A DNA stretch of 64,000 nucleotides from Pseudogymnoascus verrucosus (Eukaryota). The number at the start of each line of letters is the position of its first letter. Position 1 is the stretch's first letter. Shown in pieces: positions 38,472 through 40,658 of this stretch. The notes under the pieces were generated by a model that was not told the origin of the DNA, did no database searches, and was given only the letters and a program-made list of their open reading frames with translations. The DNA lies in assembly GCA_001662655.1 (NCBI GenBank), contig KV460243.1; one strand, given 5' to 3'. The translations under genes were made by a program, and so were the position numbers.

Positions 38472-40658
38472 TTACAAGCCCTGGCTGAGGGTGATCAGAG
38501 TAGAAGCAAGTCCAGGTGCCAAGGAGGTAAGTCCAAGACCGCTGACAAGAGCAGCGATAGAAGGGCTCAGCTGGGCAAGGAGACCGGCATCAACTGGGAT
38601 ACCAGCAACCTTGGAGGCAGCATCGGTGGCGCCGACGTTGCCGGTGACGTTCTTCACAACACCCTCAACCTCAGACACAACACCACCAACAGCTGGGACA
38701 ACATCACGGGCATCGACGGCACCAATGACAGGCGCGACGACGCCGGAGACAGTAGAGGTGACAGGGTTCAGGATAGCCTCGAGAGCCTGGGTGACGACGG
38801 CAAGCGGGTCAGAGGACTGGCGGGTCTTGAGTCCCTCGGAGAGAGTGATCAGGGTAGCAGCGAGACCGGGAGCGAGGGTGGTGAGTCCGAGACCGGTGAC
38901 AAGGGCAGCGACATCAGGGGAGAGCTTGGCGAGGAGACCAGCGTCGACGGGGACACCAGCAACGTCACGGGTGACAACACCACCAGCGAGACCGGAGACG
39001 AGACCAGTGACGGGGGCGGCAACGGTCTCGACAGTGTTAACAACACCCTCAACCTGGCGGGCACCAACAGAGCCGGCGAGGCCAGTGACGGGAGTCACGA
39101 CGGTCTCGACGGTGTTGACGACACCCTCAACCTGGCGGGCGCCAACGGAGCCAGCGAGGCCGGAGACGAGGCCAGTGACGGGAGTCACAACAGTCTCGAC
39201 GGTGTTAACGACACCCTCAACCTGGCGGGTCTTGAGGCCCTCAGAGAGGGTGACAAGGGTGGCAGCGAGTCCAGGTGCGATGGAGGTGAGTCCGAGACCG
39301 CTGACGAGAGCAGCGACATCAGGGCTCAGCTTGGCGAGGAGACCAGCATCAACTGGGATGTCTGGGACGACGCTGTCAACCTGGCGGGTCTTGAGGCCCT
39401 CGGAGAGAGTGATGAGGGTGGCAGCGAGGCCAGGGGCGAGGGTGGTGAGTCCGAGGCCGGTGACAAGAGCAGCAACATCGGGGGAGAGCTTGGCGAGGAG
39501 ACCGGCATCGACTGGGACGCCAGCGACGTCGCGGGCACCAAGACCCTGGACAGCACCAGTGACCTGCTCGACGGTGCCCTTGACAGTAGGGACGACCTTC
39601 TCAACGGTACCCTGGACGGTAGGGACGACCTTCTCAACGGTACCCTGAACGGTAGGGACGACCTTGTCCTGAACGGCACCGGTGACCTGGGCGAGGATAG
39701 CCTCAAGAGCGGGCTGGAGCTCACCAACCACGTCGGGGACCTGGCGGGTCTTGAGTCCTGCGGAGAGGGTGATCAAGGTGGAGGCAAGGCCAGGGGCGAG
39801 GGAGGTAAGTCCAAGACCGGTGACGAGAGCAGCGACATCTGGGCTCAGCTTGGCCAGGAGACCGGCGTCAACTGGGACGGAACCGGCGGCCTTGCTGGCG
39901 ATGTCGGTGGCGGCACCTCCGGCGGTGAGGCTCTGGATAAGAGCCTCAAGACCGGCGATGTCACGGGCACCAATAACACCAGTGCCGTTGGTGAGGCTAG
40001 CGAGGAGCGCCTCAACAGTCGGGATAAGATCGCCGACAGCAGGGACACTCTGGCGGGCAGCGACACCACCCTTCAAGCTGGCGAGGAGAGCCTCAAGAGT
40101 TTGGACGAGATCGCCGGCAACTGGGACGTTCTGGCGGGCAGCAACACCGGAGGTGAGGCCAGCAAGGATGGCCTCGAGCTGCTGGACAAGATCGCCAACA
40201 ACTGGGACATCCTGGCGGGCACCGACACCAGCAACGAGGCCTGAAACAACATCGGTGACGGGGGTGACAACAGTCTCGACGGTGTTGACAACACCCTCAA
40301 CCTGGCGGGTCTTGAGGCCCTCGGAGAGAGTGACTAGGGTGGCAGCAAGGCCAGGGGCGAGGGTGGTGAGTCCGAGGCCGGTAACGAGAGCAGCCACATC
40401 AGGGCTGAGCTTGGCGAGGAGGCCAGCATCAACTGGGACACCGACTTGGCGGGTCTTCAGGCCCTCGCTGAGGGTGACGAGGGTAGCGGCAAGACCAGGT
40501 GCGAGGGTGGTGAGTCCGAGACCGGTAACGAGAGCGGCGACATCGGGGCTCAACTTTGCGAGAAGGCCGGCGTCGACTGGGACGGCTGGGGCCTGGGCCA
40601 CTGGGGCGGCGACGGCGGCGGTCGCGAAGACGGCAGCGAGAGTGTAGGAGAACTTCAT
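38472..40658 (-). CDS. Secreted repeat polyprotein (728 aa), probable Kex2-processed peptide precursor
   Basis: Signal peptide MKFSYTLAAVFATAAVA. Seven copies of PVDAGLLAKLSPDVAALVTGLGL..TLSEGL plus two other repeat types. All 15 Arg are in [LVI]xxR|Q/D. Strong codon bias. Confidence 0.9.
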   Translation of the reverse strand: MKFSYTLAAVFATAAVAAPVAQAPAVPVDAGLLAKLSPDVAALVTGLGLTTLAPGLAATLVTLSEGLKTRQVGVPVDAGLLAKLSPDVAALVTGLGLTTLAPGLAATLVTLSEGLKTRQVEGVVNTVETVVTPVTDVVSGLVAGVGARQDVPVVGDLVQQLEAILAGLTSGVAARQNVPVAGDLVQTLEALLASLKGGVAARQSVPAVGDLIPTVEALLASLTNGTGVIGARDIAGLEALIQSLTAGGAATDIASKAAGSVPVDAGLLAKLSPDVAALVTGLGLTSLAPGLASTLITLSAGLKTRQVPDVVGELQPALEAILAQVTGAVQDKVVPTVQGTVEKVVPTVQGTVEKVVPTVKGTVEQVTGAVQGLGARDVAGVPVDAGLLAKLSPDVAALVTGLGLTTLAPGLAATLITLSEGLKTRQVDSVVPDIPVDAGLLAKLSPDVAALVSGLGLTSIAPGLAATLVTLSEGLKTRQVEGVVNTVETVVTPVTGLVSGLAGSVGARQVEGVVNTVETVVTPVTGLAGSVGARQVEGVVNTVETVAAPVTGLVSGLAGGVVTRDVAGVPVDAGLLAKLSPDVAALVTGLGLTTLAPGLAATLITLSEGLKTRQSSDPLAVVTQALEAILNPVTSTVSGVVAPVIGAVDARDVVPAVGGVVSEVEGVVKNVTGNVGATDAASKVAGIPVDAGLLAQLSPSIAALVSGLGLTSLAPGLASTLITLSQGL

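Follow-up and report, generated by a model that had tools for sequence, protein, structure and literature searches.

Repeat precursors cut by the convertase Kex2 (Kex2-processed repeat proteins, KEPs) have been catalogued across fungi in two surveys, whose selection rules, as described, require KR, RR or KK (or RK) between repeats (Le Marquer 2019, PMC6339444; Umemura 2020, PMC7329392). In Ustilago maydis, the 652-aa Rep1 has 12 repeats and KEX2 sites and is reported to yield 10 peptides of 34-53 aa and a 229-aa protein, and its products form amyloid fibrils on aerial hyphae (PMC3133707). Kex2 itself is described as cutting almost exclusively after Arg at P1, with a preference for Leu and other aliphatic residues at P4 and for Lys at P2, where Thr and Pro are among the residues tolerated. 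In vitro it cut the LxxR junctions of the effectors SnTox3, ToxA and SIX1/4/6 (bioRxiv 10.1101/2020.05.27.120113). Here we describe a gene within a 64,000-nt stretch of Pseudogymnoascus verrucosus DNA (contig KV460243.1, assembly GCA_001662655.1; this whole stretch is called the window) whose product, the window protein, is probably a secreted repeat precursor of the Kex2-processed type with single-Arg sites. Although KEP-type processing is known, a multi-class, very hydrophobic cassette precursor separated by single-Arg [LVI]xxR motifs is, judging from sequence, probably new.

The gene reads as one uninterrupted, intron-free open reading frame (ORF) of 728 codons plus stop. Its product contains 15 Arg, found in the motifs LKTR (six times), VGAR (three), VAAR (two) and IGAR, LGAR, VVTR and VDAR (once each), and followed at P1′ by Q at 11 sites and by D at four. 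There are 21 Lys, yet not one KR, RR, KK or RK pair. Cutting after each Arg and removing a 22-residue signal divides the protein into 16 pieces of 26-77 aa, all of them hydrophobic, with a grand average of hydropathy (GRAVY) of 0.29-0.91 (0.75 for the whole mature part) and a net charge of 0 to -3. A first-pass annotation of this DNA had reported 15 Arg, all in [LVI]xxR and followed by Q or D, and a mature part free of Cys, Met, His and aromatic residues, and our recount agrees on both: none of C, M, H, W, F and Y occurs beyond residue 22, the two F, one M and one Y all lie within the first 11 residues, and Cys, His and Trp are absent throughout. The 16 peptides that it predicted and their lower size bound also stand, its upper bound of 73 aa does not (the longest piece is 77 aa), and its minimum of three peptide classes was recovered as PVDAGLL... 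(seven copies), QVEGVVNTVETV.. (four) and Q.VP..GDL..LEA.LA (three).

With L, V and I making up 34.6% of the mature part and Q and D 7.8%, the chance of finding L, V or I at every P4 is 1.2e-7 for 15 independent sites and 0.005 once the repeats are reduced to five types of junction; with these five types, the chance of Q or D at every P1′ is 2.9e-6. As evidence for the Arg rule, conservation across homologs carries more weight than these figures.

The cassettes are arranged in the order A-A-B-C-C-C-(x+A)-D-A-A-B-B-B-A-E-(y+A) (Table 1). The main unit, A, is 41-44 aa long (PVDAGLLAKLSPDVAALVTGLGL...; pattern PVDAGLLAKLSPDVAALVTGLGLT.LAPGLA.TL.TLSEGL(KTR)) and occurs seven times, starting at aa 27, 75, 262, 382, 435, 570 and 688. 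B (QVEGVVNTVETVVTPVT...G.R) is present in four copies and C (Q.VP..GDL..LEA.LA...AR) in three, D carries three repeats of the 11-aa VVPTVQGTVEK, and E (QSSDPLAVVTQALEAIL...VDAR) is a single copy. The seven A, four B and three C copies fall within the repeat rule used by Umemura (three or more repeats, each 8 to 100 aa long). The terminal A unit stops the protein at ...LSQGL, just where the K-T-R spacer opens in the other six.

By inspection, the N-terminus (MKFSYTLAAVFATAAVAAPVAQA) looks like a secretion signal of the sort expected of a KEP: two polar residues (MK) are followed by a hydrophobic core of 15 residues and then by a small-x-small end (AQA), with a Kyte-Doolittle peak of 1.65 over aa 3-21. 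It is kept among the homologs. Between the signal core and VDAGLL sits a run of X-Pro/X-Ala dipeptides, and small relatives carry AP-VP ahead of QLL; such runs are of the type trimmed from alpha-factor-like precursors by STE13-type dipeptidyl aminopeptidases.

Among close relatives, the best named match is V499_05553 of Pseudogymnoascus sp. VKM F-103 (98% identical), and at least 10 further matches, 465-769 aa long, come from Pseudogymnoascus or are unnamed. We counted Arg over the homologous regions of 12 proteins, the window protein included, leaving aside the tails of P0008 and P0011, which are mis-annotated, and an extension at the N-terminus of P0009. L, V or I occupies P4 at 160 of the 166 Arg, the six exceptions being QGLR (twice), MVAR, TVQR, PKTR and KVVR. 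P2 is A at 71 sites, T at 66, V at 15, G at seven, L at six and Q at one, and is never basic; P1′ is Q at 100, D at 43, E at eight and another residue at 15. Conservation of the Arg motifs, which the first-pass annotation had set as a check, is thus seen at P4, with P1′ mostly Q or D. All 12 proteins lack dibasic pairs, and the 15-30 Lys that each contains are located inside units. Nine aligned sequences all share 10 of the 15 Arg, and strains differ in how many copies they have of the cassettes that carry the remaining five. Separately, P0013 (V498_02928, Pseudogymnoascus sp. VKM F-4517) is a second, shorter paralog with four A units only and LKAR or LKTR junctions. The homologs listed include proteins of P. 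australis and of several further Pseudogymnoascus strains but none named as P. destructans; that this species is missing from these matches is not evidence of absence.

Sequence comparison places the window protein in a wider family, without a Pfam match, built on the unit LL..LSP.V..LV.GLGL...P.....L; it shares with this family the unit itself, a signal peptide and an Arg-ended spacer. A phmmer search run exhaustively over 1.84 billion representatives returned 21 matches at E <= 1e-3, with small family members at 1e-30 to 1e-13, while word-indexed searches found at least 39 shorter proteins and a profile of the small form at least 29 matches. The small secreted forms, mostly unnamed records, are 99-200 aa long and consist of a signal peptide and two or three copies of LL.DLSPDVA.LVTGLGLGTLAPGLAGTLDTLGTDV. 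Every one of the 18 inter-unit junctions in 14 such homologs ends in Arg, 14 of them being dibasic (KVKR, KAKR, KSKR, KKR, KRR, VKR) and four reading [LV]K[PA]R. A single protein can carry both kinds: in P0016, one junction reads KVKR and the next VKPR, and the units that they separate are nearly identical. Ten of the 14 end in ...GTDV, ...GQDV or ...SDNL, the residues that otherwise stand ahead of the spacer.

The Penicillium and Aspergillus forms (294-340 aa, four units) follow the same rule. All 26 have K-R or K-K-R past the second unit (...LGKNLKR/G, where the slash follows the Arg), this site contains the sole Arg of the protein in 19 of them, and the proteins end in ...QNL or ...KNL, the same residues as ahead of K-R. 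In BLASTP alignments of the window protein, ...SEGLKTR/Q stands opposite ...GTDVKVKR/Q of the small form P0034 (E 6e-23) and ...GLKTR/Q opposite ...NLKR/G of the Penicillium protein P0041 (E 7e-12), where both C-termini also align. Forms from Arachnomyces and Malbranchea, together with unnamed ones, have two units flanking a different middle part, and the first unit of P0020 and P0022 ends in LK[AV]R. Across the family as aligned, Arg is nearly absent except at unit ends, and canonical Kex2 sites and [LVI]xxR sites interchange at that column.

Other searches were largely silent. Pfam gave no real match for the window protein or 15 relatives, only marginal low-complexity ones; HypD (25.8 against a cut-off of 25) and Baculo_PEP_C (below cut-off) were judged composition artefacts. 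The ESM Atlas returned only unnamed clusters, the top one being of the Penicillium type (0.81 for the window protein, 0.94 for P0041), and a PDB sequence search gave no match better than E = 0.13. A metagenome locus scan with P0034 found no loci, and one with P0021 found two weak ones, of which the one translated (L001) is not a relative. A weak, probably compositional match, P0026 (851 aa), is a classic KEP in its own right, in which KR and acidic spacers (DLDEDKEA) stand between many copies of the hydrophobic peptides FIGP.IS.LGGLLGGIG and AIFPLLGLLGLIG.

These comparisons suggest a processing route. The pre-pro-polyprotein would first lose its signal peptide, and a Golgi convertase with P1 Arg specificity, most likely Kex2/kexin, would then cut after the Arg of all 15 [L/V/I]-x-x-Arg junctions. 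The products would be about 16 peptides of 26-77 aa, hydrophobic, neutral to acidic and without Cys or aromatics, in at least five classes (seven A, four B, three C, single D and E). Most would carry an N-terminal Gln that could become pyroglutamate, and the C-terminal Arg would perhaps be trimmed by a Kex1-type carboxypeptidase. We infer cleavage at each Arg by Kex2, as well as the Kex1 trimming and the pyroglutamate formation. Since the same unit is separated by Kex2 sites in distant small relatives, the Arg residues can be read as cleavage-type junctions. This part of the first-pass reading is supported by comparison, given the dibasic and [LV]K[PA]R sites at the aligned position, while the cleavage, the dependence on Kex2 and the repellent-like, surfactant or lytic function that it foresaw stay at the level of proposals; its statement that LxxR is a recognized fungal cleavage motif is borne out by published accounts of Kex2, which document LxxR, aliphatic P4 and Thr or Pro at P2.

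LKTR, with Thr at P2, and the VKPR of relatives, with Pro, fit these preferences well; the ..AR sites, with Ala, are less certain. The internal Lys, even that of LLAK inside the conserved unit, are compatible with an enzyme that accepts only Arg at P1. Peptidomics of Agaricomycete KEPs is reported to have detected pyro-Gln at many N-termini and, for some products, a cut after a single Arg (PMC9769878), which is a precedent for the pyroglutamate idea rather than a result of this work, and a kexin 2 gene is described as annotated and expressed in P. destructans (PMC5810475). An AlphaFold2 (AF2) model of the window protein, from nine sequences, has a mean predicted local distance difference test (pLDDT) score of 43 and a predicted template modeling score (pTM) of 0.23. 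Each A unit is modeled as strand-helix-helix-strand-helix at pLDDT 50-76, helices are placed in the C cassettes at 154-171, 182-196 and 211-223 (low confidence), and all 15 Arg fall in segments below 50. The model is weakly consistent with beads on a string with exposed junctions. That of a Penicillium relative (27 sequences, mean pLDDT 35) was unusable.

The repeat copies within the gene are old and under purifying selection. Among the A units (21 pairs, 41 codons), the mean proportion of synonymous differences (pS) is 0.41 and that of nonsynonymous differences (pN) 0.08, a ratio of 0.19. Amino-acid identity between A units is 80-100%, compared with 74-90% at the nucleotide level, and two pairs with 100% identical protein are only 84% and 89% identical in DNA. 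The pN/pS ratio is 0.08 for the first 17 codons of the B cassettes (six pairs) and 0.41 for the C cassettes (three pairs). Furthermore, the variant SGLGLTSIAPGL of the fifth A unit occupies the matching position in the homologs; a variant so fixed in position indicates that the array is older than the divergence of these strains.

Part of the gene is contained in 13 public sequencing runs, none of which contains half its words. Contigs of reads from four of these (X1, X6, X7 and X9) were mapped to the gene in 30 bins. Run X1, which comes from a relative and whose RNA type is only guessed, gave 19 contigs over 20 of the 30 bins, including a 951-nt contig that connects 38409 to 38470 and omits 60 nt. 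Since the ends of the join coincide with a textbook fungal intron, this contig is read most simply as a spliced transcript of a relative, and hence as transcription; the alternative is a genomic deletion with identical ends. The RNA libraries X6, X7 and X9 gave one contig each (260-582 nt, 90-98% likeness, three to five of 30 bins), those of X6 and X7 extending to 40730; they show that relatives are present in these libraries, and hardly anything beyond that. Gene models that mishandle the spot of the 3′-UTR (untranslated region) intron may account for the odd tails at the C-termini of P0008, P0011 and P0013, tails that tblastn did not find in the window.

Several observations weigh against processing by Kex2 as proposed here, or limit what can be drawn from it. 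P2 is Ala or Thr at most of the 166 sites (71 and 66) and never basic, and the five best alternatives at P2 reported for Kex2 do not include Ala, so that the enzyme may cut ..AR sites poorly. The Penicillium and Aspergillus forms keep two units joined with no Arg between them, which implies that release of single units is not obligatory and that the unit could serve as a folding module. Both AF2 models are of low confidence (mean pLDDT 43 and 35), and the evidence of transcription comes from relatives, with X1 only guessed to be RNA.

The joined pairs, together with the same fold pattern that AF2 gives each A unit (pLDDT 50-76), the floppy linkers between them and the never-basic P2, would also suit a modular secreted or cell-wall protein that remains uncut or partly cut, with folded A modules on flexible linkers whose Arg are kept for some other reason. 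We hold this to be a real but lesser possibility. It leaves unexplained the restriction of Arg to [LVI]xxR ends while Lys is allowed within units, the KR or RR at the same column in small relatives, the confinement of the sole Arg to K-R in 19 of 26 Penicillium-type proteins, and the C-termini that fall at the unit end across clades. If the junctions are cut, an Arg-specific secretory or extracellular protease other than Kex2 could be responsible: Ala, Gly and Val at P2 are suboptimal for Kex2, and KEP peptides of Coprinopsis are reported to persist in single and double kex2 knockouts, indicating redundancy (PMC9769878). Such an enzyme is nonetheless unlikely to be the main agent, as canonical KR or RR stands at the same junction in family members, aliphatic P4 with Arg at P1 is the published subsite preference of Kex2, and the LLAK left inside the conserved unit fits a P1-Arg-specific enzyme such as Kex2.

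Two further readings are far less probable. A signal peptide followed by repeated cassettes is also the general architecture of precursors of ustiloxin/dikaritin-type cyclic RiPPs (peptides synthesized by ribosomes and modified after translation). The mature part, however, has no Tyr or other aromatic residue, and Tyr is described as required for cyclization (PMC6339444, PMC7329392); the cassettes, at 26-77 aa, are far above core length; and no DUF3328/UstYa, tyrosinase or methyltransferase match was found in the window ORFs scanned, so that we give this origin almost no credence. That Pfam scan (E <= 1e-3 or 1e-4) covered 17 ORFs hand-picked from the 43 stop-to-stop ORFs of at least 110 aa at 25-48 kb and, outside 26-48.2 kb, the 47 ORFs that reach 130 aa, and found neither DUF3328 nor tailoring enzymes; ORFs below 110-130 aa and split exons fell outside it. 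A polytopic membrane protein with the A-unit cores as membrane-spanning segments is very improbable as well. The cores reach a 19-residue Kyte-Doolittle mean of 1.63-1.68, at the usual threshold of 1.6, and the mature GRAVY is 0.75, but each core contains four Gly, a Pro and several Thr with a predicted break at GLGL. The unit of small relatives peaks below the threshold, at 1.58, and is placed after a signal peptide and next to Kex2 sites, as in a precursor that is secreted in soluble form.

What processed peptides might do can be approached by analogy only: a repellent-like function is suggested by similar architecture and hydrophobicity. On this ground, the peptides might become associated with the wall, or with a surface or interface, and self-assemble like the Ustilago repellents, a role that we regard as possible and put forward tentatively. 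With a net charge of 0 to -3, none of the predicted peptides is cationic, and this speaks against a lytic or antimicrobial mode of the classic kind. In composition, the B cassettes are Val/Thr-rich. More speculatively still, and doubtful as a whole, the window protein could be the founding example of a monobasic KEP, with [aliphatic]-x-x-Arg as sole separators, and an ascomycete counterpart of the repellents, forming a Cys- and aromatic-free self-assembling coat on hyphae or spores from A modules, beta-prone B and helical C.

The coordinates of the gene, its cassettes and the neighboring features are collected in Table 1. On the plus strand, antisense to the gene, open frames run over 38442-40244 (600 aa), 38725-39648 (307 aa) and 39901-40647 (248 aa), and GC content is 0.56-0.58 over the gene, whereas the flanking 32-38 kb and 42-50 kb have 0.45-0.52. 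We rejected these frames as genes because selection and homology back the minus frame; they are most likely mirror frames of the GC-rich repeat. The neighboring genes are ordinary by their Pfam matches (GNAT acetyltransferase, alpha-galactosidases, 2EXR, GH32, sugar transporter, pectinesterase, GH28, RabGAP, GINS, Uds1). Two separate alpha-galactosidase genes, both Melibiase_2 plus Melibiase_C, lie amid carbohydrate-active genes in the 64-kb window.

Table 1. Features of the repeat-precursor gene and its surroundings, in window coordinates
Feature	Position	Strand	Description and basis
Whole coding sequence	38472..40658	-	728 aa + stop, single exon; 98% identical to V499_05553
Signal-peptide-like N-terminus, aa 1-22	40593..40658	-	MKFSYTLAAVFATAAVAAPVAQ; inspection and Kyte-Doolittle
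X-Pro/X-Ala run, aa 17-32	40563-40610	-	APVAQAPAVP (AP-VA-QA-PA-VP, five consecutive dipeptides); sequence
A unit 1, aa 27-70	40449..40580	-	ends LKTR; repeat comparison
A unit 2, aa 75-118	40305..40436	-	ends LKTR; repeat comparison
B cassette 1, aa 119-148	40215..40304	-	QVEGVVNTVETVV...VGAR; repeat comparison
Three C cassettes, aa 149-175/176-202/203-232	39963..40214	-	Q.VP..GDL..LEA.LA...[VI].AR; repeats, AF2 helices
Fragment 7: LEAL-type N-extension, aa 233-261, and A unit 3, aa 262-305	39744..39962	-	ends LKTR; repeats
D cassette, aa 306-376	39531..39743	-	ends LGAR; period 33, 3.2 copies
A unit 4, aa 382-425	39384..39515	-	ends LKTR; repeat comparison
A unit 5, aa 435-478	39225..39356	-	variant SGLGLTSIAPGL, ends LKTR; repeats and homologs
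B cassettes 2-4, aa 479-508/509-534/535-564	38967..39224	-	end VGAR/VGAR/VVTR; repeat comparison
A unit 6, aa 570-613	38820..38951	-	ends LKTR; repeat comparison
E cassette, aa 614-651	38706..38819	-	QSSDPLAVVTQALEAIL...VDAR; sequence
Fragment 16: N-extension, aa 652-687, and A unit 7, aa 688-728	38475..38705	-	ends ...LSQGL; repeats
3′-UTR intron, 60 nt	38410..38469	-	GTAAGT...CTAAT...CAG, opens 2 nt past stop; X1 contig join
TATAAG, candidate core promoter element	40815..40820	-	about 160 nt upstream of ATG; sequence
Alpha-galactosidase 1	1925-3129	-	Melibiase_2 + Melibiase_C
Sugar transporter	8780-10207	+	Pfam
GH32	10714-12516	-	Pfam
Alpha-galactosidase 2	31511-32446	+	Melibiase_2 + Melibiase_C
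Pectinesterase	50389-50880	-	Pfam
GH28	52029-53357	+	Pfam

Pseudogymnoascus comprises cold-adapted soil fungi and includes the pathogen of bat white-nose disease. If the junctions are cut, fungal catalogues built on KR, RR or KK would miss a whole class of precursors, and a search rule that looks for Arg confined to [LVI]xxR at repeat ends could reveal more of them. Cleavage would also make this family, with one unit flanked by KVKR, KR, KPR, KAR, KTR or GAR across species, a natural series for the P2 and P4 tolerance of Kex2 in vivo, and each gene would supply about 16 very hydrophobic peptides without Cys that could be examined for roles in surface activity or in the wall.

How, then, does this precursor compare with known systems? 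Hydrophobins have eight conserved Cys, and the window protein has none. With KEPs such as the alpha-factor precursors and the survey sets, as these are described (PMC6339444, PMC7329392), it shares a signal peptide followed by tandem cassettes with convertase-type ends, a last copy without spacer, a strain-variable cassette number and an X-Pro/X-Ala run after the signal. It differs in its peptide classes, of which there are at least five, and in the length (26-77 aa) and strong hydrophobicity of the pieces. The small members of its family, with KR or RR, are formally KEP-like; dibasic sites occur at 14 of their 18 junctions and in neither the window protein nor the 12 Pseudogymnoascus regions. 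Lacking a dibasic site, the window protein falls outside the operational KEP definition and could not be listed by either survey, as the first-pass annotation had foreseen and as the criteria stated in both papers bear out. LSPDV, VTGLGL and LSPEV are absent from the text supplements of both surveys, though other supplement files may differ; in a limited literature search, neither this family nor an all-monobasic KEP was found described, and there was no match for the Penicillium rubens homolog Pc22g04560.

The cleavage sites of Candida albicans Ece1 are KR. Ece1 is described as a Kex2-cut secreted polyprotein, one peptide of which, candidalysin, is membrane-damaging (KEP survey, PMC6339444/PMC7329392); the likeness is by description, and set against candidalysin the predicted peptides of the window protein have a net charge of 0 to -3. 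Rep1 is, again by description, similar in size and layout to the window protein with its 728 aa and 16 hydrophobic, Cys-free pieces of 26-77 aa, and differs in coming from a basidiomycete and in having KEX2 recognition sites. Our searches with the window protein gave only its own unit family, none of them being aimed at Rep1. Finally, the Kex2-processed pro-domain (K2PP) effectors (SnTox3, ToxA and SIX1/4/6; Outram et al.) share the aliphatic P4 and the Arg at P1, with variable P2 and P3. In those proteins, as reported, the motif removes one disordered pro-domain from a folded effector, whereas in the window protein it occurs 15 times and would be the sole separator of a peptide array.

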